Shown piece by piece: positions 10,404 through 57,671 of a DNA stretch of 64,000 nucleotides. The translations under genes and the position numbers were made by a program. Within the stretch, counting starts at the first letter, position 1, and each line of letters begins with the position of its first letter. Source of the DNA: an uncultured Clostridia bacterium (GTDB lineage Bacteria; Bacillota; Clostridia; TANB77; CAG-508); NCBI GenBank assembly GCA_947627595.1, contig CANQWQ010000004.1, positions 4,341-68,340 of the forward strand. The letters run 5' to 3'. A model generated the notes under the pieces. It saw only the letters and a list, made by a program, of their open reading frames with translations, had not been told where the DNA came from and did no database searches.

Positions 10404-13400
10404 TCATTTGTAGAATTTCTTTCTTCTTACAAATTCAACTGTTACATAAGTAACACCTAAAACTATTATCACAGCTGGAATAGCTATTAATAATACGTTT
10501 GTAACTTGCTCTGCTTTCTCATTTGCCTTTCTTTGAGTTTCTGAAATACCAGTTGGTGGAGAGAAAGTTACATATTCAGAGAAGTCTGTATCACTTTCAG
10601 GTCTAGCAAGTTCTATTAAAGTCTTTGGTAATACTCTTGATGGATCTGGATCATTGATTGCAATTGGCTCTTTAGTTGTATTTCCAATAAATCCATCTGC
10701 AGCAAGGTCATCTTTTACATATGCCTTTCTACCAACAGTATTTGAAACTTTAATAATCTCTGCGATATTATCTAATACAACACCATTTATATCAACTTCT
10801 GAAGTTAATATCTTAGAAGCTTCTAATCTGATGAAGTAGAATTCATTCATAACAGTATTTTCATAACTACTGTCAAGCGGATTTCCAAGTGTTCTTATAC
10901 TTGCGTCTCCAACTGTTCCACTACCATCATAATCATATCCTACAGATGCCTCAGAAATTGTTGTATTAAATTTATTTCTATCAAATGGCTCTAAGAATTT
11001 ATAGAAGTATGGGTTGATATTAGCATCTTCAATGTTAAATGCTAAGTTATTATTTGTATTTTCAGTTCTACTTACATAGTTCTTTTCACCATCTGTAATA
11101 TTTTGTACAGTTGGGTCAATTCCTCTTAATAAGCCTTTTTCTGCGATTTCATCAATACTATATGTTTGGTAAGTAACTTGATTATTTTCGTTAAAGTTTT
11201 CTTCTGGCTTAAATACTAAGTCATTATCAACATAGTCAATGTATTGATTTACTCTTGTTTTAACAATTGACTCTCTATTTGCACCAGCTGTCTTTGTATC
11301 ATTGTAGTACATATCACCTACATAGTAACCAGCTGTATAGTTGCTTTGAGCATCATGTCTAATATTTGTATAAGTATATGCTTTCTTAACTGAGTTTGAA
11401 CCAACTCCGTTTTGTCCAGCATAATTGTAAATTGCGTTTCCACCTACAGAGCTTAATCCAGCTGTAAGTGTAGCTGTTGCTGTTCCGTCACCACCTATTT
11501 GACCAACTCTATTATTGTCTGTCAATAAGTAATGTAAGTAGTTTCTACTATAATCATAATTTCTTGTTTGTGTATTTATAATATCTGTTTTTGTTACACC
11601 ACTTGATGAAGTACTTGTTCCAGTACTTGGTGGAACAAATTGTACATGTAAGTCTGTCTCTGATCCAAGATCTCCTGGAGTTCCTTCAATTTTCTTCTCT
11701 AACCAAGTTGAAATGTGGTCAATATCACTATTATTAGCAATAGCAGTTTGGAATTTAATTGTAATTATCATACCTTGAAGAAGATCATCATCAACGTTTA
11801 CATATCTGAAACCTTGGTTTGTTCCAAATCTATTTAATACCTGAACTTGTTCAAGTCCTTTAGATTTAACAAGGTCTGGAACTGCTCTATGGATGATTTT
11901 GTCTCCTCCATCTTCATAGATAATCTTGAAGAAGATATCTATTAATGTGTTTCCATCAGAAGTTATTGCTCTAACTTCTGTAATATCATTCATAAGTTGA
12001 AGTTTTGTTATTGGTCTTTCAATTAAACCAAAGTTAACGTCTCTTACTGAATAATATAATGGGTCTGTTGTTGTACCATCAAGTGTTTTGGTTGATGCAT
12101 TACCATAATTTCCAAAATACTCGATTTGCATATTAAATGCTTTTGTATCAGCGAACATTGATGTATGTTCTGCTAAAATTTTTGCTTCATCTATATTAGT
12201 TAAAGTTCTTCTACTGTCATTTTCTTTTTCTGTTGTAGATATTCCAGTATCATAAGCTTTTAAAACTGTATCCATTGGGTATGTCATTGTTGTTGAATAT
12301 TCGTTAACTTCAAGTCTTCTAATCTCATTATCTTTTGCAACTGAAACTATATTTGAACCTAATGTAGTTTGGAAGCTTGAGCTAAATGGATTACTGTTTC
12401 CTGAAATATTTGTGAATGCTGTTGCTTCAATTATTTCAGCTTCTTGAGTTGGATCTCCTGGATCAGTATATTTTGTAGACTTAAAGTCTTGTCCAGAATA
12501 TCTAATTGTTGTACCATCACTGGTTACAAGGAAGTCTGCCTCATCACCATAAACGAATCTTACAACATAGATACCTGCATGAAGTCTATATCTATCATCT
12601 ACAGAGTTTTGTCCTGATGTGCCTCTTAAGCTACTATCAACACAGTCTCCAAAGTAATATCTACCATCTGAACCAGTTCTATACCACATTCCAGTATCAA
12701 CTAAATATTCTTTTTCAACATTTCCACCGCTCTTTCTTTGAACAACTTCGTAAAGTTTAACTAAAACATTTGCAGCTGGTGTATCTTTTGTTGTATCTGA
12801 TGACATTTTACCATCACCAACTTTTTGACCATCATCACTAGCTGTTTTTGCAAGTTCTTCGAAAACTATACCAGAAATATTTCTGTATGATTTCTTTTGA
12901 TATTCTGGTGGTGGGTTATTTTCTGGTGGTGTATCTCCTGGAGGTGTTCCAGGTGGTACTGGTGTTTCTGGTGGTGGATTATCTGGATAATCTCTTAATA
13001 CAATCTTTAATGCTGTCTCAAATGTATCATCCTCAAATTTTGATGTATCGAAATCATCACCAGTTGTTTCTACGTTTGCTGGGTTTGAGTTTACATCAAT
13101 TAAACCAGCTGGTGTAGTACCATCTTCTTTATAGATTGAGTATGCTCCAACTTCTGCAACATTGACTTTTGCATCAATTGCATTATCTGAAGTCATATCA
13201 ACATAAATGTATCCTTGTTTATCAGTTTCTGTATGTTTTAATACTTTATATTTTGAATAAATATCTAAAGTATCATTTGGCGCTAATTTCTTATTTGATA
13301 AATCACTTCCTGTAAGGAATTGTACATTACATTTAGATGGACAGTTTGCTGAATTTTCAAAGCTTGAGTTTGTACTTGAATTTAATGTTGCTCCAGTTAC

Positions 13401-16400
13401 ACTATCTAATCTAGCTTCTAAGAATGTAAGTTCATTAGAATAGTAATCGACAACTTCTTTTACAGCTGCATAGCGTCCTTGATCTGATTCATTTTTAATT
13501 GTAATCTTGTAAGTTATAATAATTTCTAAGTCATTAGTTCTTCCATAATCTGTAAATGCATTATTTGCATTCATTACATTTTTGACTTCATCAACATAGT
13601 TAGCTGTTCTAAATTCATAGTCTTCTCTATAGATTCTTAATACATATGGATCCATTGTATTATCTGATTTAGCTGTGAATCCAGAATTTCCTAGTTTCTC
13701 AAATGTGTAAGTTGTATCAAATCCATTTACAGTTACTTGTGCACTAACAACGTCTTTTGTTAATGAAAGATTTGCTTTTTCTCTTTCTTTTAATCCTAGG
13801 TTAATATGTTGTAAGTAATCTACTTCACCATCTGGATAATAGAATGTGAATGATTGAGCTTCAACATATATTCCTGAAGATTTATCCCATGTATATGTAC
13901 TTATTTGTAAATTACTTGTATTGTTTGTATCATATGCTAATGTATATTTATTTCCTGAACTATCTTCAGTATCATAAGATTTATTATTTGCAATTGTAGT
14001 TAATTTCTTCTCAAAGTCTGGTCTATTACGATCATCTGCATTTGAGTCATTTTCGAAATCCACTATCATATTATATGAGCCATCTATATGTTGCTTATCG
14101 TGGTTATTTACAGGTTCATAACGAACACCATTATAATCAAATACTACATAATATTGTAATAAAGCACCTGTTGGGTAATAGAAATCATTTCCTTCACCTA
14201 TATGAGTATATTCTGTTCCTTGAGTTGCTCTTACATCAGATTTATCAAAGCCTTTTCTAACTCTACCAAAATCATAATGTCCTGATGCTGAAACTTGCTG
14301 CTCATCAACCTTTTTATCTTCTGTTGCATTCCATAACTCAACTACTACTTTTCTATCTGATGGTAATTGCATTGCTTGATCAAGCTCTTCGCCTGGGCCT
14401 TTAAGATCATCGCCATCTAAATCTAAGTAAACATCACCAGCGATTATTGGATCAAGTACTCTTAAATATTCTGCATCAGTACCAGGTAAGCTTTCTTCAG
14501 GCTCTGTTCTTGTACTACATGAGAAATCGCAATTAGGGTAATCGTGATAAGTTACAGTTATATAATCATCATATGTATAACTATATCTTTGATAAGTGTC
14601 ATATGCATGTATAAAGTCACAAACATTTTTAGTATATTGATATTTTATATCTGAAACAGCGTTTTTAATATTTGTTATTCTCATATTTGAAGTTAAAACT
14701 TCAAATTGTAAATCAGCTGTTACTGTCTGTTCTTGATCTTTAATTAATAGTACATCATTCCAAATTATTTCATCACCTGGATTACCGCCAAATGAGGCTC
14801 CGCTAATACTAATAAATCTTAATTCAGAACTATCAAATGTATCTGTACATTTAATATAGTCTAAATATCTATCCTCATAATAATGTGAACATTTATTGCC
14901 TTGGTGATCAGCATCACTTTCATGATCAAACCAAATTTTGAAATCTATTTCTACTCTATATGTTACTATACTTCCTTTTTCAACTTCAGCAGGATATATT
15001 TCTTTAGTTGTTGTTCCCATAGCTTCTCTTCCTGATCTAAAGTATCCTGATGAATTTGGACTTTGAACATTAGTTACATATTTACGAATTTTACCTGCAG
15101 GAGGATATGTTCTCTTTTTTAATTTAAAGAAATCAGATGATTCTAATTCTTCTGCATCTTCACCATCTGCAGTCAAAGCCTTAAAGTATGCTGTATTTAC
15201 ATAAGTACCTTCAGGAGTATCTTTTGGAACTGTAGCAGTTATTTCTACAAAAAGTGTAGTTCTTGGTGGTATACTTATTTGTGTACCACTTTCAGAAATA
15301 GCTGTTCCATTGAAAGTAATACTTTGTATTTGTATAACACCATCATGTACATCTCTAAATATACCTGTTATTGTATAAATACTCTTATTTTCTAATTCTA
15401 CTTTATAAACTATTGTCTTATCAGTATCATTATATCCAGCATCAGCAGGATTTGACACTTTTCCTGGTTCACTTAAAGATGAACGACTTTGACCTGCTCC
15501 ATCAATGCTCTCGATATATTTATTAATTGGTGATATAGAATTAGGTATTATTACCCAATCTGTTGAAGTTATTTCATTTGAAGGGTCTAATACATTGTTT
15601 TCATCATATGGCGTAAATCTTATAGTATTCTTATATTTACCACTTGTTAAACCAGATGCTAAATCTAAACTAATTTGATATTCTCTTTTCTCGCCAGGTT
15701 GCAATACTACTGAAATAGTTTTTGAACTGGTATCAGTAGGACTATCTGGAGTTATATAAGTAAAAGAATTTCCTCCAGTTGGTAGAGGTACATCTCCAGT
15801 ATAATTGCTAACATTTGTGAAATTTATTAAATAAGGATATTCTGGTTCATCTGTTAGAACACCTTTAATTATTTCATTACTTGTATTCTCAAGTTTAATT
15901 TTATAATATACTGTAGATTCAGCAAAATCTATTATTGCAGGATCTTGCTCTCTATCAGTTTTATTTTCTCTTTGATCTCCTAAATTAGTTTCTCCAGGAT
16001 CATTTGGATCATTTGATTTTATTTTTGTAACATATTTATTTATTTTAGGTTTATTAGCAACATCTTCTGATCCAAAGAATACAGCTCTATCTTGAACTCC
16101 TCCGCTATCACCATCAGTGTAGAAGAAGATGAATACTTTTCCAACATAAGCTTTATCTGTTATTTGACCGTTTTCATATTGAATTGCAGTTGCTCCTTCT
16201 GTAGTATTTCCACCATCAAAAGAGCTACCATATCCAGCGAATCCTGGAAATCCTAAAGTTTGAATACTACTTCTTAATCCTAAACTCATGAAATACCAGA
16301 AATCTGCCCAACATGTTGAATACATTTGATCATGGATAGTACCACTTTGAACTAATGCTCCATATGCTGCCATTCCTTTAGCACCTGAAACTGGAGCACT

Positions 16401-16772
16401 TGATGTTTGAGTACCACTGGCACTATTTACAGTAATATAACCGTCTTTATCTATATCTATTACCGCCATCAATTTAAAAGCTGTTTTTCCGCCAGTTGCA
16501 GAGCTATCTAATGATCCTTGTTCGAAACAAGGTGTATTTACAACACCATGTGTATTATCAGGAACAAGTACACCACCTTTTTCTACTATTGTACCATCTG
16601 AATATGTTAAATCTTTAACAGCATCCCAACTTAATGCACTAAATGCTCTTAAATTATCTACTCCTGCATAAGTAGCTTCAGCTTTATTGTTAGTGAAATG
16701 ATTACTCAATCCAATAACAGCTAAAATAGTAAATACTAATATTAATATTATAGATATTTTCTTTTTCATCAT
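10404..16772 (-). CDS. Giant cell-surface protein (2122 aa): signal peptide, DUF11/Ig-like and SdrD-B/Cna-B-like domains, C-terminal SPPTG sorting signal + TM + basic tail
   Basis: N-terminus MMKKKISIILILVFTILAVIGLS. C-terminus ...VTFSPPTGISETQ...LLIAIPAVIIVLGVTYVTVEFVRRKKFYK. The C-terminal 350 aa are homologous to the 3197-aa protein (VKTRVNQYIDYVDNDLVF vs VQTKVHQMIDYVDPDVEF). Starts 8 nt after the stop of the upstream gene, with GGGGGTGA RBS. Confidence 0.85.
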   Translation of the reverse strand: MMKKKISIILILVFTILAVIGLSNHFTNNKAEATYAGVDNLRAFSALSWDAVKDLTYSDGTIVEKGGVLVPDNTHGVVNTPCFEQGSLDSSATGGKTAFKLMAVIDIDKDGYITVNSASGTQTSSAPVSGAKGMAAYGALVQSGTIHDQMYSTCWADFWYFMSLGLRSSIQTLGFPGFAGYGSSFDGGNTTEGATAIQYENGQITDKAYVGKVFIFFYTDGDSGGVQDRAVFFGSEDVANKPKINKYVTKIKSNDPNDPGETNLGDQRENKTDREQDPAIIDFAESTVYYKIKLENTSNEIIKGVLTDEPEYPYLINFTNVSNYTGDVPLPTGGNSFTYITPDSPTDTSSKTISVVLQPGEKREYQISLDLASGLTSGKYKNTIRFTPYDENNVLDPSNEITSTDWVIIPNSISPINKYIESIDGAGQSRSSLSEPGKVSNPADAGYNDTDKTIVYKVELENKSIYTITGIFRDVHDGVIQIQSITFNGTAISESGTQISIPPRTTLFVEITATVPKDTPEGTYVNTAYFKALTADGEDAEELESSDFFKLKKRTYPPAGKIRKYVTNVQSPNSSGYFRSGREAMGTTTKEIYPAEVEKGSIVTYRVEIDFKIWFDHESDADHQGNKCSHYYEDRYLDYIKCTDTFDSSELRFISISGASFGGNPGDEIIWNDVLLIKDQEQTVTADLQFEVLTSNMRITNIKNAVSDIKYQYTKNVCDFIHAYDTYQRYSYTYDDYITVTYHDYPNCDFSCSTRTEPEESLPGTDAEYLRVLDPIIAGDVYLDLDGDDLKGPGEELDQAMQLPSDRKVVVELWNATEDKKVDEQQVSASGHYDFGRVRKGFDKSDVRATQGTEYTHIGEGNDFYYPTGALLQYYVVFDYNGVRYEPVNNHDKQHIDGSYNMIVDFENDSNADDRNRPDFEKKLTTIANNKSYDTEDSSGNKYTLAYDTNNTSNLQISTYTWDKSSGIYVEAQSFTFYYPDGEVDYLQHINLGLKEREKANLSLTKDVVSAQVTVNGFDTTYTFEKLGNSGFTAKSDNTMDPYVLRIYREDYEFRTANYVDEVKNVMNANNAFTDYGRTNDLEIIITYKITIKNESDQGRYAAVKEVVDYYSNELTFLEARLDSVTGATLNSSTNSSFENSANCPSKCNVQFLTGSDLSNKKLAPNDTLDIYSKYKVLKHTETDKQGYIYVDMTSDNAIDAKVNVAEVGAYSIYKEDGTTPAGLIDVNSNPANVETTGDDFDTSKFEDDTFETALKIVLRDYPDNPPPETPVPPGTPPGDTPPENNPPPEYQKKSYRNISGIVFEELAKTASDDGQKVGDGKMSSDTTKDTPAANVLVKLYEVVQRKSGGNVEKEYLVDTGMWYRTGSDGRYYFGDCVDSSLRGTSGQNSVDDRYRLHAGIYVVRFVYGDEADFLVTSDGTTIRYSGQDFKSTKYTDPGDPTQEAEIIEATAFTNISGNSNPFSSSFQTTLGSNIVSVAKDNEIRRLEVNEYSTTMTYPMDTVLKAYDTGISTTEKENDSRRTLTNIDEAKILAEHTSMFADTKAFNMQIEYFGNYGNASTKTLDGTTTDPLYYSVRDVNFGLIERPITKLQLMNDITEVRAITSDGNTLIDIFFKIIYEDGGDKIIHRAVPDLVKSKGLEQVQVLNRFGTNQGFRYVNVDDDLLQGMIITIKFQTAIANNSDIDHISTWLEKKIEGTPGDLGSETDLHVQFVPPSTGTSTSSSGVTKTDIINTQTRNYDYSRNYLHYLLTDNNRVGQIGGDGTATATLTAGLSSVGGNAIYNYAGQNGVGSNSVKKAYTYTNIRHDAQSNYTAGYYVGDMYYNDTKTAGANRESIVKTRVNQYIDYVDNDLVFKPEENFNENNQVTYQTYSIDEIAEKGLLRGIDPTVQNITDGEKNYVSRTENTNNNLAFNIEDANINPYFYKFLEPFDRNKFNTTISEASVGYDYDGSGTVGDASIRTLGNPLDSSYENTVMNEFYFIRLEASKILTSEVDINGVVLDNIAEIIKVSNTVGRKAYVKDDLAADGFIGNTTKEPIAINDPDPSRVLPKTLIELARPESDTDFSEYVTFSPPTGISETQRKANEKAEQVTNVLLIAIPAVIIVLGVTYVTVEFVRRKKFYK

Positions 16773-16780
16773 TTCACCCC

Positions 16781-21352: not shown

Positions 21353-21604
21353 AAATTGTTCTCCTTTGTAGGTTTTATGGCTACAACGCGTCTTAGTTTT
21401 CTGTCAAAACGGCGTAGTACACCACATATTTTTAATTAATATATTATAATTTTAACTTATGAAAATAAAAAATCAATAGGGGAAAAATGGCAAAAAAATT
21501 AAACACCCTTTACCCCCTTACGGAAGTTGTTTCTAGGTGTTTCAAAAGTCTTATATTACTTTTTGATGTCATTTTTCGCAATTTAGTGTTTTAAAAAGCA
21601 AAGA

Positions 21605-21634
21605 TATCCACATTTTTCCTCTAAAATGTGGATA
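21605..21634 (-). terminator. AT-rich hairpin (12-bp stem) in the intergenic region downstream of the 2557-aa gene; possible second terminator or regulatory stem
   Basis: atccacatttt tcctct aaaatgtggat, followed on the minus strand by tttgcttttt. Confidence 0.3.
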
Positions 21635-21715
21635 CCCCTAGCAAAATTTAGAAAAAGAAAAAAGGGGACGACAAGACAAGGGGACGGTCCTCTTCATACC
21701 AAAAAAACAAGACAA

Positions 21716-21742
21716 GGGACGGTCCTCTTCAAGGACCGTCCC
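21716..21742 (-). terminator. GC-rich rho-independent terminator overlapping the stop codon of the 2557-aa gene, built from a 25-bp direct repeat
   Basis: gggacggtcc tcttcaa ggaccgtccc is a 10-bp G+C stem followed by ttgtcttgttttttt on the minus strand. The unit acaagacaagggacggtcctcttca recurs at 21671-21696. Confidence 0.7.
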
Positions 21743-29402: not shown

Positions 29403-29452
29403 AAGGATACCTCCTTTTTAAGACATAAAATCCCCTTATTATAATCATGTAA

Positions 29453-29481
29453 ATTATATCCTATTTTCGTGAGATTGTAAA
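29453..29481 (-). promoter_or_regulatory. Candidate sigma-A promoter for the 2557-aa gene (TTTACA-17-TATAAT)
   Basis: Minus-strand reading gcTTTACAatctcacgaaaataggaTATAATttacatg. The -35 is at plus 29476-29481 and the -10 at 29453-29458. RBS AAAGGAGG lies 8 nt before ATG 29402. Confidence 0.5.
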
Positions 29482-29566
29482 GCATTTTTTTGCCTTTTTT
29501 TAGGTATTTTCGAAAGTTTTTAATTCTTAAAAAATAGGGCAAAAATACCCCTAAAAAAGCAAAAAA

Positions 29567-42575: not shown

Positions 42576-42694
42576 AATTACCATAAAACTTTAAAAAAAT
42601 TATTGCAATCTGTGATAATTTATTAAACTTTTAGCCTAAATTTGCTAAAGTTCAGTTTTTATTTTATTACACTTTGTCATAAAATGCAAGAAAA

Positions 42695-42724
42695 AATCGA
42701 AACGTTTTTACAAACGTTCCGATT
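42695..42724 (-). terminator. Rho-independent terminator after giant surface gene 3
   Basis: aatcgaaacgttt ttac aaacgttccgatt is a 13-bp stem with one mismatch, followed on the minus strand by ttttttcttg. Confidence 0.6.
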
Positions 42725-42739
42725 TTTTATTATATTGTT

Positions 42740-48700: not shown

Positions 48701-51700
48701 TCCTTCAGCTAATGTTCCATCTATTTTTGTTGAAGTAGAAGTTCTAGTTCTATTAGAAATACTTACAAATTCAACATTTGCTGGTATACTAATTTCTTCT
48801 ACAGTATATGTTGGTGCAGGGGCTCCTTCTTCCCATGTGATTAATTCAGAAACCCAATCTTCTCCACCACAGACTGCTTCTACATCATTAACTTTTCCAT
48901 CTAATACTAAAGTTGTATTTGTATATTGTGTATATCCTTTTGTTCCATCTGGATTTATCTTGTCATAATATCTAAATGTACCTGAAATTGTTACTTTAAA
49001 GTAGAATACATAATCGTCTAATACTTCATCTGTAGACTCTTTAATTATAACAATATGTGCATTCTTTCTAGCAGTACCTTTGTTAATACAAGTAATTACT
49101 GTTTGAGCATATCCTTCATAGTTTCCGTTAATAACACCGCTGATTGATTTAACACTAGTTTCTGTTCTGCTTCCATTTGAAATACTAACAAATTCTGAAC
49201 CAGCTGGTAAATTAACCTCTTCTACTGTATATCTAGGTGCGCTAACATTACTATCCCAATAGAATAATTCTGAATCCCAAGTTCTAGAAGCTCTATCGCC
49301 TGTTGGCGTTATTTGAACATCTAAAACAAATGGATTATCTACTGTATAAGTTTGTTTAGCCCCTCCGTTATATCCAAATGTACCTGTAACATTAACTTTA
49401 AATGAGAATGTTTTTCCATATAAGTCTTCTGTTTCAGTAAGTTTTATAATTTCTAATTTTCCGTGTAATACTTTTTCTTCATCGTTTGTAATTACAACTT
49501 TAGTCTTTCTTCCTTCTTGTAATCTACTAGAAAGATTATTTATTCTAGAAGATGTAAGTTGATCTGTTATACTTACAAACTCTGTTCCGTCAGCCATGTA
49601 TGATTCATATATTGTATATCTTGGAGCAGTTTGATTATTTCTCCAAGTAATTATATCTGAACTCCAATGCCATCCGTTTCCAGAATCTAAAGTTATATCA
49701 ATTTCTTTAGATCCGCTAACATATTCGCTTCCATATTTAAATTCACCTGTTATAGTAAGATGAGCTTTAAATACTTCACCTGGTTGAGGAGTGGTACTAC
49801 TTACCATCCTCTTATCAACCTCTATTTGAGACCATCTAGATGATCTGTTCCATGCTACAGTTGGTGGAATTTCATCTATATGTCTTGTATCTCCATCTCT
49901 TAGACTTGATACTTCAGCATCTCTTCTTACCATTGAATCTAATTGATAAAAAGCATCATTTGGAATAATTTCTTCTACATGATATTTTGGTGCTGAACCA
50001 TACCATCTAAATAAACCTGATGTCCATTCACCTTCACCTGTAACTGATCCATTTATTATCAATGGATTTCTAGAAGTATATGTTGTAATTGGTCCATTAT
50101 TATAACTAAATGTACCTGTTACACTTACTCTAAAGTTATAAGTTGTGCTCCACATATCATTAGTAGGATTTATCAGTCTCTTTTGAATCCTAATTAGACC
50201 AACATCTGGTCCTACATAGTTTTCAAAAGTTACTGTATTTCCATTAATAACACTTTCTCGAAGTGTTCCACTAAATGGACCGTTATTATTGTAACCTCCA
50301 ATTTCTTCTACATAATAGTCTGGTGCAGATTCATTTTCGCCCCATACTATTAAGTGTGATAAATCACGTCCAAATCCATTGTGAGTTCTAACTGTTAAAT
50401 GTTGAAATTCTTTTAGTCCTTCTCCATCATGTCTATCTATATAAATCTTGAATATATATGTGTCATCTATAAGTGTTTGAGAACCATCAAAGTCTCCAAT
50501 TACTCTTTTTTCAACTAATATTTTTGCTCTATGTAACTTATAACGTGTAACACATTCAGCTTCTTCGTACCATCTAGCTCCAATTAAAGCATGTGCTAAT
50601 GTCTGTGAATCGTGTGGAACTACAGATGTACATTCTATCCATGTTTCACCATCACTAAATACGCTTCTAGTACGTCCTTCACCATCTGTGTAAGTATCAA
50701 AGTTTTCATATCCATTTACTGTCCAGTTTACTTCATTATAAATACCATCATAAATGTCTAGCTCTGCTCCGGCATTCATATATTCAAATTCAAATTTGAA
50801 TTCTTTTATTGTAGTAAAGTCTGGAATATATTTAATTTCAATATAGAAAACTTCATTTGGATCTGGATAAGGATATGTTGAATTAGGATCTCTAGTTTGA
50901 TCTGCTAAGAACAAGAAATTCCAATCGGTTCCAAACTCAAGTTCTCCAACGTTTGTGTCTAATTTAACACCTGTAATTTTAGCAAAATCTACTTCTGCTC
51001 TACCATCTATTTTAACTGATCTTTTAACATAATTTAATGAATAAGGTCCAATTAAATAAGTATTTTTTCTATAGTTAAATGTTGGTGTTACTTCGTCTGC
51101 TTCATTTATAACACCATTTTGATCAGCATCTTCGTTAAATCCTGGATGATAATCTATAACTGGGGCTGTAACATCACCTTCACTATGTGTTCCGTCATCT
51201 TCATCAAATGAGAAGTGTTGTTTCTCATATTGCATTTGATATACATCACTAATTCCAGTTATTTCTTTCATATATGCTTCAAAAGCATCTGCTTCTTTTG
51301 ATAAATTGTTTGGTGCAGATGGTGAAACAGTTTGATGACTTGTTCCCATATCTGTAGTCCACCAAGCAATTTGGATATAGTTATAATCGTTTTCAATATA
51401 TGCATAATATAATGTTCCATTTATATCAACGACTGTATCATAATCCATTAAGTATACATCCCAACCTTCTGCTGGAACATTAGCTTCAACAAGATTTCCA
51501 TCAGAATAATAGTAGAAATCATAAGCTTTATATCCTTGTAATTGAACAACTACTCCTGATTTTGGATCTGTTCTTTCAAAACGACCTGTATATGCTGCTC
51601 CGCCATGTTCATCAGCAAGAATATAGATTATATTTCCATCACTATCTCTAGCTGAATCTACGTAGAAAGCACCATCTGGTGTATTAACTACATATTTATG

Positions 51701-52324
51701 ATGAATAGTATATGCTGTTTCACCAGTTGATAATTGGAATGAATAATTGTCATAATCAATTGTTCCTTCATATACTTTTGGTTGACCATTTTCATATATT
51801 ACTTCTGCTGAAGTTTGATTTCCTTGACCTATATCTAACTCTTTTTTCATTTCAGCTATAATATAAGCTTCTTTTGGTGTAGCAATATGTTGCTCAACTA
51901 TTTGATAATAACCATAAGTTCTATGAGTATATGTGGCTTTATCAAAATCTCTAGCAGCACCACTATATGAACTATATATGCTATGTTGTTCTAGAACTGA
52001 TCCAGGGCCATAGCCTAAATCTTGCCAATTACCCATGTTATAGTCAAAACTTCCTTGACTATGAGAACCTGTTAAATGAACTCTATTCTCGCCATTTAAA
52101 GGTGTTCCATGTTGACAACATAAAATATCATAATAATTAATTAAGTCATTATATGTTAAATATGTTGGGTTAGGTCTATCTGTTTGTTTTAATGAAGAAA
52201 TCTGTGGTGATACAAATAGAGCCTGTGATCTGATAGTTAAAAGTGTTCCAAATACGGCTAGCATTATAAAGAATAATACTAATAATTTAATATTGATTTT
52301 TCTAACTTTATTTTTGTTATCCAT
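42740..52324 (-). CDS. Giant fibrillar surface adhesin (about 3194 aa from ATG 52324): signal/anchor, N-terminal globular region, about 11 tandem isopeptide-type (Cna-B/SpaA-like) Ig domains, SdrD-B-like domains, C-terminal SPPTG sorting signal
   Basis: RBS AAAGGAGG lies inside the last codons (KGGV) of the upstream gene, 8 nt before ATG 52322-52324; the track starts at an in-frame GTG 52333. Repeats carry K...YTV(E/T)E(V/I)xxPxGxxFVSI...N. C-terminus EVITLSPPTGLSPTESRTLQLVLVITISITIIAVSIVIIKKKVLNKN. Confidence 0.85.
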   Translation of the reverse strand: MDNKNKVRKINIKLLVLFFIMLAVFGTLLTIRSQALFVSPQISSLKQTDRPNPTYLTYNDLINYYDILCCQHGTPLNGENRVHLTGSHSQGSFDYNMGNWQDLGYGPGSVLEQHSIYSSYSGAARDFDKATYTHRTYGYYQIVEQHIATPKEAYIIAEMKKELDIGQGNQTSAEVIYENGQPKVYEGTIDYDNYSFQLSTGETAYTIHHKYVVNTPDGAFYVDSARDSDGNIIYILADEHGGAAYTGRFERTDPKSGVVVQLQGYKAYDFYYYSDGNLVEANVPAEGWDVYLMDYDTVVDINGTLYYAYIENDYNYIQIAWWTTDMGTSHQTVSPSAPNNLSKEADAFEAYMKEITGISDVYQMQYEKQHFSFDEDDGTHSEGDVTAPVIDYHPGFNEDADQNGVINEADEVTPTFNYRKNTYLIGPYSLNYVKRSVKIDGRAEVDFAKITGVKLDTNVGELEFGTDWNFLFLADQTRDPNSTYPYPDPNEVFYIEIKYIPDFTTIKEFKFEFEYMNAGAELDIYDGIYNEVNWTVNGYENFDTYTDGEGRTRSVFSDGETWIECTSVVPHDSQTLAHALIGARWYEEAECVTRYKLHRAKILVEKRVIGDFDGSQTLIDDTYIFKIYIDRHDGEGLKEFQHLTVRTHNGFGRDLSHLIVWGENESAPDYYVEEIGGYNNNGPFSGTLRESVINGNTVTFENYVGPDVGLIRIQKRLINPTNDMWSTTYNFRVSVTGTFSYNNGPITTYTSRNPLIINGSVTGEGEWTSGLFRWYGSAPKYHVEEIIPNDAFYQLDSMVRRDAEVSSLRDGDTRHIDEIPPTVAWNRSSRWSQIEVDKRMVSSTTPQPGEVFKAHLTITGEFKYGSEYVSGSKEIDITLDSGNGWHWSSDIITWRNNQTAPRYTIYESYMADGTEFVSITDQLTSSRINNLSSRLQEGRKTKVVITNDEEKVLHGKLEIIKLTETEDLYGKTFSFKVNVTGTFGYNGGAKQTYTVDNPFVLDVQITPTGDRASRTWDSELFYWDSNVSAPRYTVEEVNLPAGSEFVSISNGSRTETSVKSISGVINGNYEGYAQTVITCINKGTARKNAHIVIIKESTDEVLDDYVFYFKVTISGTFRYYDKINPDGTKGYTQYTNTTLVLDGKVNDVEAVCGGEDWVSELITWEEGAPAPTYTVEEISIPANVEFVSISNRTRTSTSTKIDGTLAEGTDNNYITAINKPTENFHDGSLRIAKKTTEDLKGQIFNFNVKIKGEFDYAGKHYGAGSPNGDTLTIENVQVEGNGNPWVLGTVTWDEGSPAPTYEVTEVNLPAGSRFVSISNETQVVTDASQTITGTLNSTKSARVVAINYGAQPNGSHIEITKEVLNKDLKGRIFYFNVRVWSSSPFRYHDLEDATKVTTYNPGEEFVMKNVPVVADEKDWVSGYFEWDAGAAIPQYEITEVTGVFPDGVKSVSLRNDTSIIVEELTNASGRDLTITGSLAGDITHIIAVNDADSGVPVKGKITVEKQSLSDEINNDTFTFTVTVTGKFKYNGTEYRKLEIKDIKLKPGEVWTSNDIEWYESDGKPVYTVTEVTADFPEGAKFVSIRNAYQTNTQPAITGTVEENSENWVIVENTFDGYDKGRLQIHKVLLDDKGNEIDGVEFKFKVAVTLADGTVQEEIATVTSGGYWRSNWYTWSKKDSAPTYHIEEIDNSGYEVTFDKQDGQLEAQDTEDGKTGIVSVYAENHYITNHSGKLRVNKNLIVNDKISEDDVSVDFTFLVTIKGNFIYNGVAYTDNKPLTLKVVITKESGWTWESSDIKWNGDKAPTFAVEEPSADMPVGWDLVSTESSSDNNELVDGQTAVVDVTNEWRYNEELIVTMKLGGKVWDDTNRTSDKHVDALENGKIDEGEPGIENVKVTIYRALVDSSGQVVQRINGVYVYDENDLTTHLENYTYTDDNGNWSFGAVSVPALTEDEKAIYGDSYVVTYDVEFEYDGQTFEPTEFLATAGGQAQSYVGANATNNMYSDVSNRWSTIIDSSTSERDKFLLDSMAVDDLGERTSFNNKFADVQGVSPIDDSGNTVGKAAGVDELNYSSVDSVSFFNSDNSRKISTLETLDENKEILDQYKIKAATSNANLTFPFYTEDPAYDTTAWHLRGWDKTITDIFTIRYKFEAIYNYCLSINLGLVEREGTDVALEKDLTEALVVVNGKALKYKFNSAIDLEDPNNAELLYKQLAVADAQIEYNLGLYSGDYYYRASVYDGSDAGSALSGYYTRTLGLPLDTSELEIYLKYTINVYNQSETYDVTIGEVADYYDSTFELVNATEKRYVQTLNGKDVDQVIEVASPSTVKYLNGSTETGSGTMAWTNAGEIDGSDGVKYSKLTSSSLNGHKLAVGEKASITVTFKIGKDSVGESGVLNAIKLGKKHNVAEITKFTSYYSDKSENRWSSPGQISGRVDEDSAPDNVNIADYNDKPYYEDDTDSAPIITIGISDEQRIISGIVWDDAQTQNVQYGQVVGNGLFNPDEGDKVIDGITTEIYESITVPETDDNGEKVYKEYQFAWPTNQPIPALGNKTIEELTGFKQATVTQNGEYSFYNIPAGNYKVRFVYGDKQIETGKTGSEEVYSGQDYKTTAYQVKFDNDKDNDGFADNEWHDITNSELNDLRVNDARDDEARRLYISAKSEMLTFDNSTVLATADNKAADHTELFGNYETAKLTDPVRGEGYYMYAETAKINLGVENVSKVKNSENIGGVDVGVVNGKATQNGKDVGTAQFIYHVKNVDCGIEERSQTKLTLDKQIKEIILKTSDDRVILDAVYDIEYTLKSDGTIASTVVLNEEKSTASDHIASLNRRGAIDQGYRYLIIDESILQGAQIEAIYQLTVFNMSETDRISEPLETLWANVNKVSTDTEKLQLVNDAMSKIATNLYTDSKGRVFNDGTGFKSVGYGTYFGSVYYLGSQGVGVRGDEKIVQTKVHQMIDYVDPDVEFTNQNNNTKDHNWENTDVEYLMNNHLLDPATIQILDSDGRVTGKTAATDTLGAGESYSIISDKLQRYQSENKNNLILNLNSGENATENSNSGFVKFLDPYMADSNVNRSTGTISLTVTRFYSSETDASDIDNLAELIKVENTAGRRDARNIPGNVNPYKLDETTGEPVGVYAAATQGKEKDASATEVITLSPPTGLSPTESRTLQLVLVITISITIIAVSIVIIKKKVLNKN
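46790..50540 (-). repeat. Tandem array of about 11 diverged 330-360 bp coding repeats (isopeptide-type Ig-like domains) inside gene 3
   Basis: Protein-level repeats, for example KTFSFKVNVTGTFGYNG...SAPRYTVEEVNLPAGSEFVSISN...VITCINKG and GQIFNFNVKIKGEFDYAG...PAPTYEVTEVNLPAGSRFVSISN...VVAINYG. Boundaries are approximate. Confidence 0.6.
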
Positions 52325-52325
52325 A

Positions 52326-55300
52326 TTAAACACCTCCTTTAACTATCATCTTGTTTTTGATTTTCAGAACCACAATTGTTACTGCAATTCCTACTAATAT
52401 AATTGTTGTTATAATTATTGAAATATTTATGAATATTTCACCAGTTTTTACTGAAATATATGTATCTGCTCTTGAGAAGTCATCTTCATTTTGTGATCTA
52501 TTATTTGGAACAGAGTCTAAATCAGATACACCGTAAATATTGTAATCTTCAACAACTTCAGCAGTATTTGAAACTGTTCCGAAATTGTCGTTTGTTAAGT
52601 TCTTTGAAAGAACCAATTTAAGTGTTTTTGTTTCACCTGGTTGAATTTCTGTATTTGCTAAGCTTGTTGTATATAACATTCCATCTGAACCTGTGAACCA
52701 GTCACTGTTCATTCCAGAATTAAATTCCATTCCTGCTGGAATATAATCAGCAATTTTCTTAGCATATCCTGCTACTTCACCTTCGTTTTTAATTGTTAAT
52801 TTATATTCAATATATACGCTAGCACCTTCTGCTTGTTTAGCAGCAATTTCAGTTTTTGTTAATTTACTATTATCATAATTATCTGTAACAGTATCTTTAG
52901 AAGTTTTTGTTGTTATTTTTGAAACTCCTAAATCTAAGCTTAAGTCAAATTTCATAGCATCTACTAAACCGATATCTATATTTGAAACACTACCGTCAGC
53001 TACAGTAACAACTCCTGTAACAGCGCCGTTTCTCATTTGACCATTTTCTTCAATCTTTGTTGTGATAACATCTGAATTTACGTTATTAGCAACATTTTCT
53101 TTTTGGTATATAGTAACTGTATAACGAACTGTATCATAATCAAATACTATAATATAGTTACCATTTCTAACTCCAGTGAAACTATACATACCTTCAGAAT
53201 TTGTAGTTGTTGTTTGTTTTATAACACCATTATCTGAATCAACTAATGTTGCTTTAATATTTTTCATTAATTGTTCATTATCTGATCTCATACCATCATT
53301 ATCTTTATCTAACCAAGCAGTACCTGTGATTTTATAAGTTTTACTTAATGATGTTGTTCCAGTAGTTGATGAACTAGCTTGACCTGTAGAATGTTCTCCT
53401 TGAGATGTAACTACATTTCCAGAAGCTTCTATAATATGTGTAATATCATTTGATTTTTCTTCAGCAATATTTCTTCCAGAAATTGTTGCATTATTTGTTA
53501 CTGAACGCTCGCCAAGTCCATTTAAGCTAGCAGCTGCAGCTGTAACATTAACTATTAATGAATCACCTGCTGGAATTGCAGCACCTACTATAACTTTTTC
53601 TTTATTAGCAACGTTAGTATCAATTAAAATTCCTTCTGAAATATATGATACTTTCTTAGCAACTAACCCTTCAGGAATATTATCAACAAACATAACGCTT
53701 TGAGCAGTAACTGCACCTTCGTTTTTGATTGTAAATTGATAATCAATTGTTTCTCCTTCTTTAACATATGAGTTAGTTGTAGATGTTGTTTGATTTATTA
53801 CTAATTCTGGTCTACCGATAACGAAACTTACATTTCCTGAAGTATATTCTGAAGTTCCATCAGCTTGAGCATTAGCAACCATAAATACTTCTGTTTTTGT
53901 AACACTTTCGTCAATATCGCCAACTTCTAATTTTAATTTTAAACTTATAATATCTTTTGGATTGATGTCTCCAATTTTCCAAGTAACAGTTCTTGTTGAT
54001 TCATTATATTCAGCTTGGCTAACATCATGAATTGTAGTATATGTTTCGTCATATCCTAAAACTGAACCTTCAACAAATTCAAAACAATTTGCAATTTTGA
54101 ATGTTGCAACAGTATTATGAATTACATCATCTGTTAAGTTTTGTACTCTGATGTATAATTTTGCATCATTTCCTTTAAACATGATTCCATCCATAACAGT
54201 GTTTTCAATATACACTCTCATTTCTGCATGATTTAATGTAACTGTTTTTTCTTCAGTTTGTAAAACAGTATCTAAATCTGTAGCAGTTATCAATGAGTAA
54301 ATTTTAATTTCATTTTCTTCGAAATCTTGAACAGATACTCTTAATTTAAATGTAACTGTTTCATCAACTTCAAGGAAAGCTAATTTATATTCCATTTGAT
54401 TATTGTTATTTGACCAAGTAGCGTCATCTCTATCACTACTACTTGAAACAAATTGTGTATTTAATGGAATTGGAGTTGTTACTAATAAGTTACGTGCTAC
54501 TGCTTTTCCAGTATTTTTAACTGTTGTTGTAATTTCTAATTCTTCAAATTCACTAGCAGTATCTTTATTAACTGATATATCATAATCAAATTGTGGTCCT
54601 TCACCTGTAACTAAACCAACTAAATCTGCTTTAGAAACATCTGTTAATGTAGCTATATCAGTATTATTTGTATAATATGTAACGAAAGTTCCATAAATTT
54701 CTGCGTTATGTTCTAGATTTTCTGGAATTTCATATTCATATGTAAATCTTAATTTTGTAGCTGAATTCATTCTATATTCTGGATCAACCGGAACAATTAA
54801 GAATGATTTAATATTATCAAATGAATCTACAGATTCTACCCAACCATTGTTTGGATCATCTAAATCTTTAGTAGCTTCACCATTTTCTGAGTAATAATAT
54901 CTAAATTTTGTTTCATTGAAATCTTCTGGAACAATTTCTGAAATCATTTTAGCTGTTAAAGTTGTTCCTAATTCATCTCCAGTTATAATATCTTTAACAC
55001 CTTCAAAAGGAACACGTCCTAAGATTACAATGTCTGAAATATTATTTTTCTCATTATTCATAATAGTTAATTCTGCTTTAGCAGTTTTTCTATCTGAATA
55101 AATTGGAAGTTCATCTATAACTTTACCTTGATTTACACTAGTAACTGTTCTAGTTTCATCTTCACTATAACCTGAAATACTATTAACACTAACTACTCCA
55201 CTTGGTGCAGAATATGAAACTGTAGCACTTGAGAATCCAACTTCTGCTCCTTGTTCATAGTAATTTGTAGCATCATCATTAACATAAGTTAATTCAAAGT

Positions 55301-57671
55301 TTCCTTCACTTGCTGGTGCAAATAAATCAACTTTGATATTTGCATTTAATACTATATTTGTACCATTTGAAACTATACCAGAGCTTAAGTCTTTTTGTTT
55401 TCCTGTAACTTGAACTCCGATATATTTTGAACCTTCATTTTCAAATTCATAAACTTCGCCTAATTCTAAGCCTTCGCCATAAACTATGCTTGAATCTGTA
55501 ACTTCGGCTGTTTCAACATATTCTGGTAATTTGATTTGGAAAAGTGAATTTCCATAAACATCTGAGCTAACATCTTGGTTGTTTAACTCAATTTTTAACT
55601 CTACATTATTATTCATTGCAAGAGTAGATAAACTATCTTGACCAATTTCTAAATCAGCTTTTGTTGAAGTATCATCTAATTTAATCTCTAAACTAGAATT
55701 TCCAACATCAACTAAATCATTTAAATATATATATTTAGCTTTTCCTACTGAATTAATTGTAATTCTATCAAAATCTTTATAAGTGTCTTTTCCATAGCTT
55801 ACATCTGTATAAGCTTTAACTACTGAGAAAATAAGGTTTCCGTCATTAACTGGTTTTGAAGTTTCTATTTGAATATTTTTAACTGTATTTTCAAATAATA
55901 CTTCGATTACTCCGTTTTCATTTACCTCAGTATCTTTATTAATAGTAAATATTAAATTTCCGTTCTCGTAAATATTTACTACACCGTCTTCACCAAGCAT
56001 TTCAGTGAAGTTATCTTTATTTAATTTTAAAGTTTTATAATATATATCATTTTGGTTAAATGGCTCGTTTGATTTTGAAACATACTGATTATCTCCATCA
56101 GTATAATATAAACTTTCTACTATATCTTTATAAGAAACGTTAAAGATTAATTTATTGTCAATTTCAATTTCGTATTTATTTTCTTCATTATTATAATTTA
56201 AATATGTATAACCTTTTGAAACTGAATTTGTAACTGATTCATTTGAAAATGTAACAATGCTTCCGACTTCATCTTTTAAATCAAAAGTCATTTCATTTTC
56301 TGATTTTAAAGATGTTTTTCCGAATTCGTTTTGTGTAGCACTAACTTTAGTTGTTACTTGTCTTTCACCAATTCCTACATTTTTATATGTATATGTGATT
56401 AAATATTTATCAACACCAGACTCACTGTAATACATTTCTTTTTCTGGAGCTGTTTCGTCAATCAAACTATCAGTTTCATTTTGTGTAGAAACTAATTCTG
56501 ATTGATTTTTAACATTTATAACAATTTTATTTTCGTTACTATCGTAGCTCCAATTATCAGCTTGAAAAGCAACCTCATCATGTTCTTTTCCAGTCGTAGC
56601 TTTTAAAGACTCAGCTACAACGTTAATTGTTTCTGGTCTTACTCCATCTATTTCTGGAACAGAAATTTCAACATTACTTTCTTTGATTGGCAATGAAATA
56701 TTATCTGTTGAATTATCTACCATAACTGATGTTTGAAGAATTATTCCATTAACATTATCTTGACTAAATCCAAGATATTTAGTTATCTCAGCAGATGTTT
56801 TTAATTCTCTTTCATCTTCCCAAGATAATTTTAAATCAACAGTTTTTGAAACTTGAATTTCTTCAGCATCATCTGTGATATATGTTCCAACGAATTTTAT
56901 TTTATTAGTTTTTGAAATCATTGATTTTTCAACAAATTTCTTGTAATTATAAGAAATTGGAAATTCAACTTTCATTTCTGAACCAGCATCTAATTGAATT
57001 AAATATAATGTGTTTGATTCAAAACTTTGAATTTCTTTATTTTCTTCTACAAGATCTTTTGTTTCAACAGTTTCTGTAACTTCTTCTGGTTCAGGTTGAA
57101 CTTCAGTTGGTTCTTCTGAAACAGGTTCGCTAACTGTAGGCTCATCAACTATAGGTTCGTCTTCAACAACAGGCTCTTCTACAGTTGGATTATCTTCTAC
57201 AAAAACTGATCCTCCGATTACTTCTTCACCGTCATCTTCAGAACTTCCGCCAACTGTAACTTCTTCAGATACATTAGCTTCGTTAACTGAAGCAGGTTCT
57301 TTTGTTTCTTCTGTTTGAACTTCGACTTTATCGTTTATAACGAAATTTAAGTCTTTTCCGTCGCCAAACAAAATTTTAGCATCCTTCAAATATCCACTGT
57401 TTTTGACTTTAACAGTTGCACCCATGATTAAATCTGAGTTCTTGATATCTGAACTAGCTGATTTAACTTTTTCAGAATCTGAGCTTGTTTTAAAATATGC
57501 GTCAAATTCTACGTTACTGCTTCCAGTATCACCTGCATCTTTGGAGTCATTTCCAAATATGCCAGAGAAAATTGTAGCAGCATAAGTTTTACCAACTAGT
57601 GCAAAATTAGAAAAAGTCATTGTGAATATTAAAAGAATTGCTATAACCTTCTTTTTCCAGTTCTTTAACAT
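52326..57671 (-). CDS. Large cell-surface protein (1781 aa), paralogue of the 16781..21352 product: signal peptide, acidic linker, DUF11 domains, SdrD-B-like domain, C-terminal VKTG + TM + KIKNK tail
   Basis: GGAGG RBS before ATG 57671. Contains EITTTVKNTGKAVARNLLVTTPIP, YQFTIKNEGAVTAQSVMFVDNIPEGL and ITGTAWLDKDNDGMRSDNEQLMKNIKATLV...GMYSFTGVRNGNYIIVFDY. C-terminus ...YISVKTGEIFINISIIITTIILVGIAVTIVVLKIKNKMIVKGGV. Confidence 0.85.
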   Translation of the reverse strand: MLKNWKKKVIAILLIFTMTFSNFALVGKTYAATIFSGIFGNDSKDAGDTGSSNVEFDAYFKTSSDSEKVKSASSDIKNSDLIMGATVKVKNSGYLKDAKILFGDGKDLNFVINDKVEVQTEETKEPASVNEANVSEEVTVGGSSEDDGEEVIGGSVFVEDNPTVEEPVVEDEPIVDEPTVSEPVSEEPTEVQPEPEEVTETVETKDLVEENKEIQSFESNTLYLIQLDAGSEMKVEFPISYNYKKFVEKSMISKTNKIKFVGTYITDDAEEIQVSKTVDLKLSWEDERELKTSAEITKYLGFSQDNVNGIILQTSVMVDNSTDNISLPIKESNVEISVPEIDGVRPETINVVAESLKATTGKEHDEVAFQADNWSYDSNENKIVINVKNQSELVSTQNETDSLIDETAPEKEMYYSESGVDKYLITYTYKNVGIGERQVTTKVSATQNEFGKTSLKSENEMTFDLKDEVGSIVTFSNESVTNSVSKGYTYLNYNNEENKYEIEIDNKLIFNVSYKDIVESLYYTDGDNQYVSKSNEPFNQNDIYYKTLKLNKDNFTEMLGEDGVVNIYENGNLIFTINKDTEVNENGVIEVLFENTVKNIQIETSKPVNDGNLIFSVVKAYTDVSYGKDTYKDFDRITINSVGKAKYIYLNDLVDVGNSSLEIKLDDTSTKADLEIGQDSLSTLAMNNNVELKIELNNQDVSSDVYGNSLFQIKLPEYVETAEVTDSSIVYGEGLELGEVYEFENEGSKYIGVQVTGKQKDLSSGIVSNGTNIVLNANIKVDLFAPASEGNFELTYVNDDATNYYEQGAEVGFSSATVSYSAPSGVVSVNSISGYSEDETRTVTSVNQGKVIDELPIYSDRKTAKAELTIMNNEKNNISDIVILGRVPFEGVKDIITGDELGTTLTAKMISEIVPEDFNETKFRYYYSENGEATKDLDDPNNGWVESVDSFDNIKSFLIVPVDPEYRMNSATKLRFTYEYEIPENLEHNAEIYGTFVTYYTNNTDIATLTDVSKADLVGLVTGEGPQFDYDISVNKDTASEFEELEITTTVKNTGKAVARNLLVTTPIPLNTQFVSSSSDRDDATWSNNNNQMEYKLAFLEVDETVTFKLRVSVQDFEENEIKIYSLITATDLDTVLQTEEKTVTLNHAEMRVYIENTVMDGIMFKGNDAKLYIRVQNLTDDVIHNTVATFKIANCFEFVEGSVLGYDETYTTIHDVSQAEYNESTRTVTWKIGDINPKDIISLKLKLEVGDIDESVTKTEVFMVANAQADGTSEYTSGNVSFVIGRPELVINQTTSTTNSYVKEGETIDYQFTIKNEGAVTAQSVMFVDNIPEGLVAKKVSYISEGILIDTNVANKEKVIVGAAIPAGDSLIVNVTAAAASLNGLGERSVTNNATISGRNIAEEKSNDITHIIEASGNVVTSQGEHSTGQASSSTTGTTSLSKTYKITGTAWLDKDNDGMRSDNEQLMKNIKATLVDSDNGVIKQTTTTNSEGMYSFTGVRNGNYIIVFDYDTVRYTVTIYQKENVANNVNSDVITTKIEENGQMRNGAVTGVVTVADGSVSNIDIGLVDAMKFDLSLDLGVSKITTKTSKDTVTDNYDNSKLTKTEIAAKQAEGASVYIEYKLTIKNEGEVAGYAKKIADYIPAGMEFNSGMNSDWFTGSDGMLYTTSLANTEIQPGETKTLKLVLSKNLTNDNFGTVSNTAEVVEDYNIYGVSDLDSVPNNRSQNEDDFSRADTYISVKTGEIFINISIIITTIILVGIAVTIVVLKIKNKMIVKGGV

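Follow-up and report, generated by a model that had tools for sequence, protein, structure and literature searches.

Why does an uncultured bacterium encode two giant surface proteins side by side, and why does it do so twice? The question was raised by a 64,000-nt stretch of DNA from an uncultured Clostridia bacterium (assembly GCA_947627595.1, contig CANQWQ010000004.1, positions 4,341-68,340; hereafter the window), in which four giant open reading frames (ORFs), all on the minus strand, form two tightly coupled gene pairs, named module A (genes A1 and A2) and module B (genes B1 and B2). An earlier note on this DNA, made from the sequence alone, had proposed that the duplicated arrangement represented a functional pair such as an adhesin plus stalk, or a pilus-like assembly. 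Based on the analysis presented here, it is rather probable that each module encodes a co-expressed, translationally coupled pair of wall- or membrane-anchored giant fibrillar adhesins, each of which would be anchored independently.

Results

Gene junctions and paralogy of the two modules

The four ORFs were found on the minus strand at the coordinates given before (positions refer to the window, and all features lie on the minus strand unless stated otherwise). A1 (16781..21352) encodes 1523 aa and A2 (10404..16772) 2122 aa, while B1 (52326..57671) encodes 1781 aa and B2 (42740..52324) 3194 aa when counted from the ATG at 52324. In module A, the A1 stop codon TAG was followed by an 8-nt gap (16773..16780; GGGGTGAA), which is Shine-Dalgarno (SD)-like, and then by the A2 ATG at 16772. 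In module B, the B1 stop codon TAA (52328..52326) and the B2 ATG were separated by 1 nt, not by 2 nt as previously described; the 8 nt reported for module A were correct. The ribosome-binding site of B2 was indeed found inside the last codons of B1, as AGGAGG at 52338..52333. In the ORF listing, B2 began further upstream, with a GTG (52333); the ATG at 52324 was preferred as start because AGGAGG sits 8 nt before it. No convincing minus-strand terminator was detected between the two genes of either module.

Pairwise BLASTP alignment gave 26% identity over 1370 aa for A1 and B1 (E=5e-86) and 25% identity over 1249 aa for A2 and B2 (E=3e-44). Modules A and B are true paralogues, as had been supposed, and their similarity is far beyond chance. 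The similarity of the second genes was formerly thought to be limited to the C-terminal 350 aa; it actually covered about 1150-1250 C-terminal residues. It comprised residues 962-2103 of A2 (10464..13889), which hold SdrD_B-like units and a terminal base module, and residues ~2135-3186 of B2 (42767..45922).

A further relationship was detected between the two partners themselves. When the C-termini of gene 1 and gene 2 were compared by hhalign (55 vs 55 matching sequences), they proved homologous over about 313 columns (probability 99.9%, E=2e-33). Within the aligned base region lay an SdrD_B-like domain, a terminal domain of CnaA-like type, into which gene 2 has large insertions, and an N-x-AEI...N strand. 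Since this base module is common to both and all distal parts differ, gene 1 and gene 2 were interpreted as ancient paralogues.

Conservation of the ordered pair in related genomes

A scan of species-representative genomes returned 235 related loci, 79 of which were fetched. All 79 belonged to metagenome-assembled genomes (MAGs) of uncultured Clostridia from the gut or rumen, sampled in humans, ruminants, rabbits and chickens; Clostridium sp. CAG:343 and CAG:452 were among them. Pairing was scored when a same-strand ORF of at least 250 aa started -20 to +113 nt from the end of a gene-1-type ORF. Over all fetched loci, a partner lay directly downstream in 78 of the 86 ORFs with the gene-1 C-terminal signature, and four of the eight unpaired ORFs were located at contig ends. 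The gap was 30 nt or less in 76 of the 78 pairs, the two genes overlapped in 19, and an SD-like core was present in 68. Reversed gene order was never seen among the fetched loci. The first loci examined, which held diverse A1 homologues, likewise carried a giant gene 2 right after gene 1 in all cases, at times as tandem modules. Thus, the proposed paralogues were similar and the homologues occurred as the same ordered pair with very short gaps rather than singly, which was in agreement with the expectation of the earlier note.

Several MAGs held both module types, and in two loci (L012 and L034) both were found on one contig. The subtypes of the two genes co-segregated: 11 clusters of one against 9 of the other gave an adjusted Rand index of 0.67, and 53 of 55 best hits were concordant. 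This co-segregation suggested that the cassette diversified as a unit.

Gene 1 resembles an all-beta rod

The layout of A1 was resolved into a signal peptide, an acidic low-complexity linker, an Ig-like array, CLIPPER/DUF11-like units, an SdrD_B domain, a terminal domain, and finally an xTG motif with a transmembrane (TM) helix and a basic tail. DUF11 is the family now renamed CLIPPER; CLIPPER and SdrD_B are stalk domains of fibrillar adhesins, in which intramolecular isopeptide bonds have been predicted or proven (PMC12617251). Of the features assigned earlier to both first genes, the acidic VTVGGSSE-type linker was present in A1 and B1, and SdrD_B (PF17210) exceeded the Pfam cutoff with 46.6 bits in each, at residues 1188-1298 of A1 (17459..17791) and 1449-1539 of B1 (53055..53327). 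For DUF11 (PF01345), the assignment held in B1, where the best unit (residues 1290-1410, 53442..53804) scored 52.9 bits, well over the 24.6-bit Pfam cutoff, and was backed by the NCBIfam model TIGR01451 (59 bits); the score of 23.6 bits in A1 was slightly below the cutoff. In a PDB profile search, the profile of 20 gene-1 homologues matched the structures of SdrD and UafA, and both matches fell on the SdrD_B domain of A1.

Residues 161-720 of A1 (19193..20872) were matched by no family model. An AlphaFold2 model of this region, built on a 53-sequence alignment, predicted an array of about four beta-sandwich domains with a predicted local distance difference test (pLDDT) score of 89.7. The Foldseek matches of the array were integrin alpha leg domains, AgI/II C-domains, MSCRAMM N2N3 and CfaB, all with a TM-score of ~0.2. 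As these are generic tandem Ig-like proteins, gene 1 was taken to encode an all-beta rod without a distinctive head. An invariant Lys, K175 (IYKGYLYAN), was found at the start of the folded part.

The gene-1 C-terminus followed the pattern DxDSxPxN...EDD...h-x-h-x-(V/I)-x-T-G, with the TM helix directly after it and then the basic tail. T1488 and G1489 of A1 were invariant in the alignments of 20 and 53 homologues.

Gene 2 carries a thioester domain-like head and a repetitive stalk

A2 and B2 were searched as whole proteins and as eight pieces, and no Pfam or NCBIfam model passed its threshold; direct family assignment was dropped, as every whole-protein and piecewise match fell below cutoff. 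Among the partners from related loci, nearly all gene-2 products showed a signal peptide followed by a Cys in an (I/L)(Y/F)C(V/M/I)(E/Q)H(G/N)Q-type motif, for instance LCCQHG in B2 (C69/70) and FCMEHG or YCVEHG in relatives. In an alignment of 30 gene-2 heads, about 14% identical, this Cys was invariant, and a GP pair was the sole other invariant feature.

Thioester domains (TEDs) carry three motifs, namely [YFL]C-phi-zeta with the bond-forming Cys, TQxx-phi-W in an adjacent helix, which is not bond-forming, and phi-Q-zeta-phi-phi with the bond-forming Gln; this last one comes after a beta-sandwich insert in Class II TEDs (PMC6194298). The B-type heads contained all three motifs in order, as FCME/YCVE/LCCQ, then VQNAIW/IQIAWW, and then xQ(N/R)(L/I)x, the last following a beta-rich segment of about 100 aa. 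The TED family PF08341 matched 4 of the 30 heads below threshold (best E=0.034), and it was the only Pfam family to match more than one member. In the head from L027, this match was co-linear, running from the YC motif through the Q..W motif.

For profile comparison, a Class II TED reference alignment was assembled from TIE-pLS20 and eight plasmid relatives. In TIE-pLS20, Cys68 is experimentally essential and Gln256 was modelled as its bond partner (PMC8092201). The hhalign comparison of 22 compact gene-2 heads with this reference gave a score of 33.4, against 12-21 for 30 column-shuffled controls, and in the resulting alignment Cys68 (YCID) and Gln256 of TIE-pLS20 fell on the conserved Cys and Gln of gene 2. 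With 24 diverse gene-2 heads, an E-value of 4.6e-5 and a probability of 68% were obtained. Over all such comparisons, the E-values spanned 4.6e-5 to 1.3e-3, and the matches were stronger than the shuffled controls.

The B2-type group aligned co-linearly with the compact heads (E=5.5e-5 and 9e-5), and on account of this co-linearity Cys70, Q318 and the candidate bond-forming Gln574 of B2 could be placed. The B2 head, residues ~40-600 with an insert of ~150 aa (50525..52207), is a probable TED, in which Cys69/70 lies in LCCQHG, Q318 in IQIAWW and Gln574 in HDSQTLAH. The A-type heads were shorter, about 230 aa, and an alignment of eight of them showed a conserved Cys and a Gln in a beta-hairpin, corresponding in A2 to Cys82 (TPCFEQ) and Gln227 (GGVQDRAV). 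The A-type heads, A2 included, aligned with the compact heads at E=2.8e-3. Because this profile link is weak, the assignment of the A2 head (residues ~35-265, 15978..16670) is tentative, and it is a possible TED, Class I-like in look. The TED fold and a Cys-Gln thioester are predictions from motifs and profiles.

In one subgroup of heads, those of the 1,300-aa type (L007, L024, L032, L054 and L079), VANAIW replaced VQNAIW at about position 90-110, Ala taking the place of Gln, and the Cys and the late Gln were retained. The TQxx-phi-W Gln is not needed for thioester formation (PMC6194298).

Word-seeded searches for gene-2 homologues returned only 2 and 6 matches, and an exhaustive profile search with the B2 head found just 120 clusters in 1.84 billion representatives, which indicated a narrow and fast-evolving family. 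All 34 members fetched from the latter search were giant proteins, and the C-terminally complete ones ended in (S/T)(P/E)P(T/F)G, a TM helix and a basic tail.

The stalk of B2 was delineated by a hidden Markov model iterated on B2 itself, which revealed 10 tandem units over residues 631-1841 (46802..50434) with unit E-values to 2e-40. Each unit of about 125-135 aa opened with h-x-h-x-K, carried a central Y-x-V-x-E and closed with h-x-h-x-N. Judged by sequence, this K/YxVxE/N pattern is a CnaB-type isopeptide signature, and isopeptide bonds are predicted in the gene-2 stalk. Pieces of gene 2 further gave weak SdrD_B and DUF5979 matches, the DUF5979 one in the repeat region of B2, and relatives carry SpaA/SdrD_B.

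Sorting motifs differ between the partners

All four proteins carry a tripartite C-terminal signal of motif, TM helix and basic tail, and the motif differed with the gene. In gene 1, it belonged to the class (V/I)xTG or, more broadly, [S/G/T][I/V/L]xTG, with SIRTG, SIKTG, GIQTG and SVKTG as examples; A1 ends in TVATG, a TM helix and the tail KIKTTKRFYR (16784..16897), and B1 in SVKTG, a TM helix and the tail KIKNKMIVKGGV (52329..52454). In gene 2, it was mostly (S/T/L)P(P/A/S)TG, with some LPPFG. The SPPTG attributed before to both second genes was present in each and was followed by a TM helix and a basic tail: in A2 (residues 2071-2075) it preceded an 18-aa spacer, the helix and RRKKFYK (10407..10562), and in B2 (residues 3153-3157) an 11-aa spacer, the helix and KKKVLNKN (42743..42868). 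A canonical LPKTG signal was also found, at the end of a cohesin protein (31271..32206), so three motif classes coexist in the window, and the presence of an LPKTG substrate implies that the organism uses sortase anchoring.

The motif (S/P)PXTG is the validated recognition class of Clostridioides difficile SrtB (PMC4155245). The (S/T)PPTG of gene 2 fits this clostridial class, and the (V/I)xTG of gene 1 corresponds to no validated class. When SPPTG and TPPTG were looked for in the literature as sortase motifs, nothing relevant came up. No sortase-like ORF (120-450 aa, TLxTC-type) was detected in the window or within ~10 kb of ~88 related loci, and no sortase Pfam match was found among the neighbours of the examined loci. 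A classical pilus locus was rejected, as no sortase was found within this range.

The gene-2 proteins of some other loci (L018, L020, L021, L028 and the L130-type, P0130 and P0132) ended in LPPFG or SPPFG, with Phe where the scissile Thr would stand. Should a sortase process these proteins, those lineages must rely on a different cleavage chemistry or a different enzyme.

Operon boundaries and neighbouring genes

A terminator-like hairpin with a 17-bp stem and a T run (42691..42728) lay directly 3' of the B2 stop codon and would mark the end of operon B. A sigma-70-like promoter, TTGAAA-17-TATAAT (57898..57926), was located about 225 nt upstream of B1; it is a consensus match only, at 11 of 12 positions. 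Upstream of module A, a strong terminator-like hairpin (21712..21746) after the preceding gene, ORF C, divides ORF C from operon A. A riboswitch or other regulatory RNA upstream of the operons was considered, such as the cyclic di-GMP riboswitch associated with C. difficile sortase substrates, and was set aside, as Rfam matched no RNA element in the window.

Module A is located between a G5/3D gene and ylmH, and module B adjoins minC, a penicillin-binding protein gene and mreBCD. The G+C content of the modules was slightly higher than that of their neighbours. A horizontal-transfer island was rejected, given that both modules sit in conserved housekeeping synteny with G+C barely above the surroundings.

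ORF C (21729..29402, 2557 aa) lies directly upstream of A1 and encodes a signal peptide and a weak DUF7904 match, with nothing above the Pfam cutoff. It was rejected as a third member of the system, as it showed no similarity to the A and B proteins, has no anchor and has its own terminator. It looks like a lineage-specific insertion, being absent at the equivalent position in L001 and L003. On the other side of the module, a comM-like gene was split into two ORFs (7763..8596 and 8550..9284, with a 47-nt overlap; a Lon_C/ChlI part and a Mg_chelatase part). Because the gene is also split in L001 and L003, the split is probably genuine and not an artefact of assembly.

The small LPKTG cohesin protein (31271..32206) adjoins a 1155-aa leucine-rich repeat (LRR) protein with a C-terminal type I dockerin (32390..35857), an arrangement that is syntenic in L001 and L003. 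By analogy, the two look like a wall-anchored cohesin with its partner, i.e. a cellulosome-style pair serving a non-enzymatic LRR protein. Between a TatD gene and spoIIE, a 418-aa protein without Pfam match (37246..38502) and a 510-aa WG-repeat protein (38518..40050) are encoded, which are syntenic in L003.

Two small plus-strand ORFs, 58143..58298 (51 aa) and 58317..58676 (119 aa), are present between minC and B1, where the surroundings are otherwise uniformly minus-strand. Two opposite-strand ORFs (144 and 148 aa) occupy the equivalent place in L007. The small plus-strand ORFs could be regulators of module B.

Discussion

The findings are most readily combined as follows. Each module would be a bicistronic, translationally coupled operon for two giant Sec-secreted surface proteins that are displayed together. 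Gene 1 would provide an all-beta, headless rod composed of the acidic linker, the Ig-like array, CLIPPER/DUF11 units, one SdrD_B and the terminal domain. Gene 2 would be an adhesin of the thioester-isopeptide-ester (TIE) type, whose TED-like head may bind its target covalently via the Cys-Gln thioester and would be held off the cell by a long isopeptide-type stalk (10 CnaB-like repeats in B2). The two proteins end alike, in the homologous base module and a sorting signal, through which a sortase encoded elsewhere may anchor them to the wall, or by which they may be retained in the membrane. The pair was probably born of an ancient tandem duplication, then diversified and was re-duplicated as a unit, so that modules A and B would be two old lineages. 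The division of labour into adhesin plus stalk, as first suggested, was not borne out, since both products are complete (each has its own signal peptide, long beta stalk and anchor signal) and have the C-terminal module in common. We infer sortase processing, an adhesive function and a functional importance of co-expression from sequence features.

Several results weigh against this reading. No gene-2 head attained the Pfam TED threshold, and PDB sequence and profile searches with the gene-2 heads found no match; searches with the repeats found none either. The AlphaFold2 model of the B2 head was of low confidence (pLDDT 37), which was attributed to its alignment of only 7 sequences, and for A2 the TED assignment consists of motifs together with the weak profile link (E=2.8e-3). 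At the C-terminus, the 18-aa spacer between SPPTG and the TM helix of A2 is long for a sorting signal, and in vitro C. difficile SrtB left NVQTG, the nearest known motif to the proline-less one of gene 1, uncleaved (PMC4155245). Lastly, genetic linkage alone would also give the co-segregation of subtypes.

The last point bears on whether adjacency is merely historical, i.e. whether tandem-duplicate paralogues act as independent adhesins and their order reflects linkage, not cooperation. The homologous C-terminal module makes an origin by tandem duplication likely, and co-segregation is what linkage predicts. However, the pair was kept in 78 of 82 informative cases, spanning many genomes at species level and no fewer than 8 module subtypes, and reversed order was never seen. 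In addition, the gaps of at most 30 nt or overlaps and the SD sequences embedded near the gene-1 stop argue for selection on co-expression, and a purely historical adjacency is regarded as quite improbable. The proline-less motif and the uncleaved NVQTG could instead mean that no sortase processing takes place, so that both products would be type I membrane proteins which the C-terminal TM helix keeps in place, with the TG structural, at the end of the last beta strand. LPPFG or long spacers in some gene-2 proteins, as well as the lack of a local sortase, are consistent with this. Against it, T and G were invariant across 53 gene-1 homologues that are otherwise 25-70% identical, the motif, hydrophobic stretch and basic tail form the classic sorting-signal architecture, and (S/T)PPTG fits the validated clostridial class (PMC4155245). 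Rods of more than 1,500 residues would moreover gain little from a membrane anchor under a thick wall. We therefore consider pure membrane retention unlikely.

The main rival to independent anchoring is that the two proteins are joined covalently into one fibre, a minimal heteromeric or "two-giant-subunit" pilus without a dedicated pilus-sortase locus. Either a sortase would link the Thr of the gene-2 (S/T)PPTG with a gene-1 Lys, or the thioester of gene 2 would capture such a Lys. Gene 1 would be held via its own (V/I)xTG, giving a single fibre of ~3,600-5,000 residues tipped by the TED head. The partner-specific motifs would then direct polymerisation versus wall anchoring by one or more sortases encoded elsewhere. 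That the gene order is strict and translation is coupled points to 1:1 production, and the partners keep distinct class-specific motifs with a third, canonical LPKTG in the same window. The invariant K175, where the folded part of gene 1 begins, is a conceivable acceptor, but it could equally make an intramolecular isopeptide bond. A class C sortase gene of its own is normally part of a pilus cluster, and this hallmark of the pilus-like assembly formerly suggested was missing from the window and from the ~10 kb around the ~88 loci. A precedent exists in group A streptococcal (GAS) pili, where the TED tip adhesin Cpa and the shaft FctA are an analogous sortase-joined pair with distinct non-LPXTG motifs (VPPTG, QVPTG, EVPTG; PMC7900414). 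The full anchor signals and the homologous base module on both proteins are nevertheless a better fit for independent anchoring, and the single covalent fibre is given a small probability.

The earlier note had not recognised the arrangement as a described system, which holds in part. The domain kinds and adhesin classes are already known (PMC12617251, PMC6194298); the fixed pairing with partner-specific motifs was undescribed in the literature searched. Gene 2 is closest to the TIE proteins, such as BaTIE, SaTIE, EfmTIE86, TIE-pLS20, CpTIE and SfbI (PMC6194298, PMC8092201, PMC4450167). It resembles them in its signal peptide, a head with the three TED motifs in order, an isopeptide-type stalk and a C-terminal sorting signal, and the B-type also in the beta-sandwich insert ahead of the Gln strand (Class II topology). 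Points of difference are the divergence of the heads, which puts them beyond the reach of Pfam TED and of PDB sequence searches, a 3-6 times greater length (1,300-3,200 aa), (S/T)PPTG in place of LPXTG, a preceding partner gene and, in the B2 head, the extra insert of ~150 aa; the thioester of gene 2 is predicted. Gene 1 is similar to the CLIPPER/SdrD_B fibrillar adhesins (PMC12617251) as a long all-beta protein with both domains, a signal peptide and a C-terminal anchor. Unlike these, it has no recognisable adhesive head, bears the unusual proline-less (V/I)xTG and is followed by a TED-type partner with the same C-terminal base module.

The GAS FCT pili (Cpa tip, FctA shaft, FctB base and SrtC; PMC7900414) likewise place a TED adhesin gene beside a stalk gene, and their two partners bear different non-canonical xxPTG-type motifs. 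In contrast, the present locus has no sortase, signal-peptidase-like chaperone or base pilin, its gene order differs, and in place of pilins of 30-80 kDa it encodes giant multi-domain subunits. The SrtB substrates of C. difficile (PMC4155245, PMC5569036) show the same SPPTG/TPPTG, TM helix and basic tail as gene 2, and there too the sortase is encoded apart from its substrates, whereas the gene-1 motif lies outside the (S/P)PXTG class and the organism studied here also has a canonical LPKTG substrate. Three aspects appear to be new, as no description of them was found in the literature searched: an obligate cassette of gene 1 and gene 2 that diversify together, the allotment of a separate non-LPXTG motif to each of the two partners, and a TED-like head family undetected by current models.

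The hosts of this cassette are uncultured Clostridia common in human, ruminant, rabbit and chicken guts, whose cell surface is little known. The cassette costs 11-15 kb per copy, is conserved and is often multiplied, and it is likely a main determinant of attachment to mucus, food particles or other cells. Its gene-2 heads would extend the thioester-adhesin family into sequence space missed by family models, and the partition of motifs between the partners offers a concrete handle on clostridial sortase specificity. If the partners were covalently joined, they would represent a new way to build a Gram-positive surface fibre, and a two-giant-subunit pilus of this kind would be widespread in an uncultured lineage of gut Clostridia and diversifying as a cassette.

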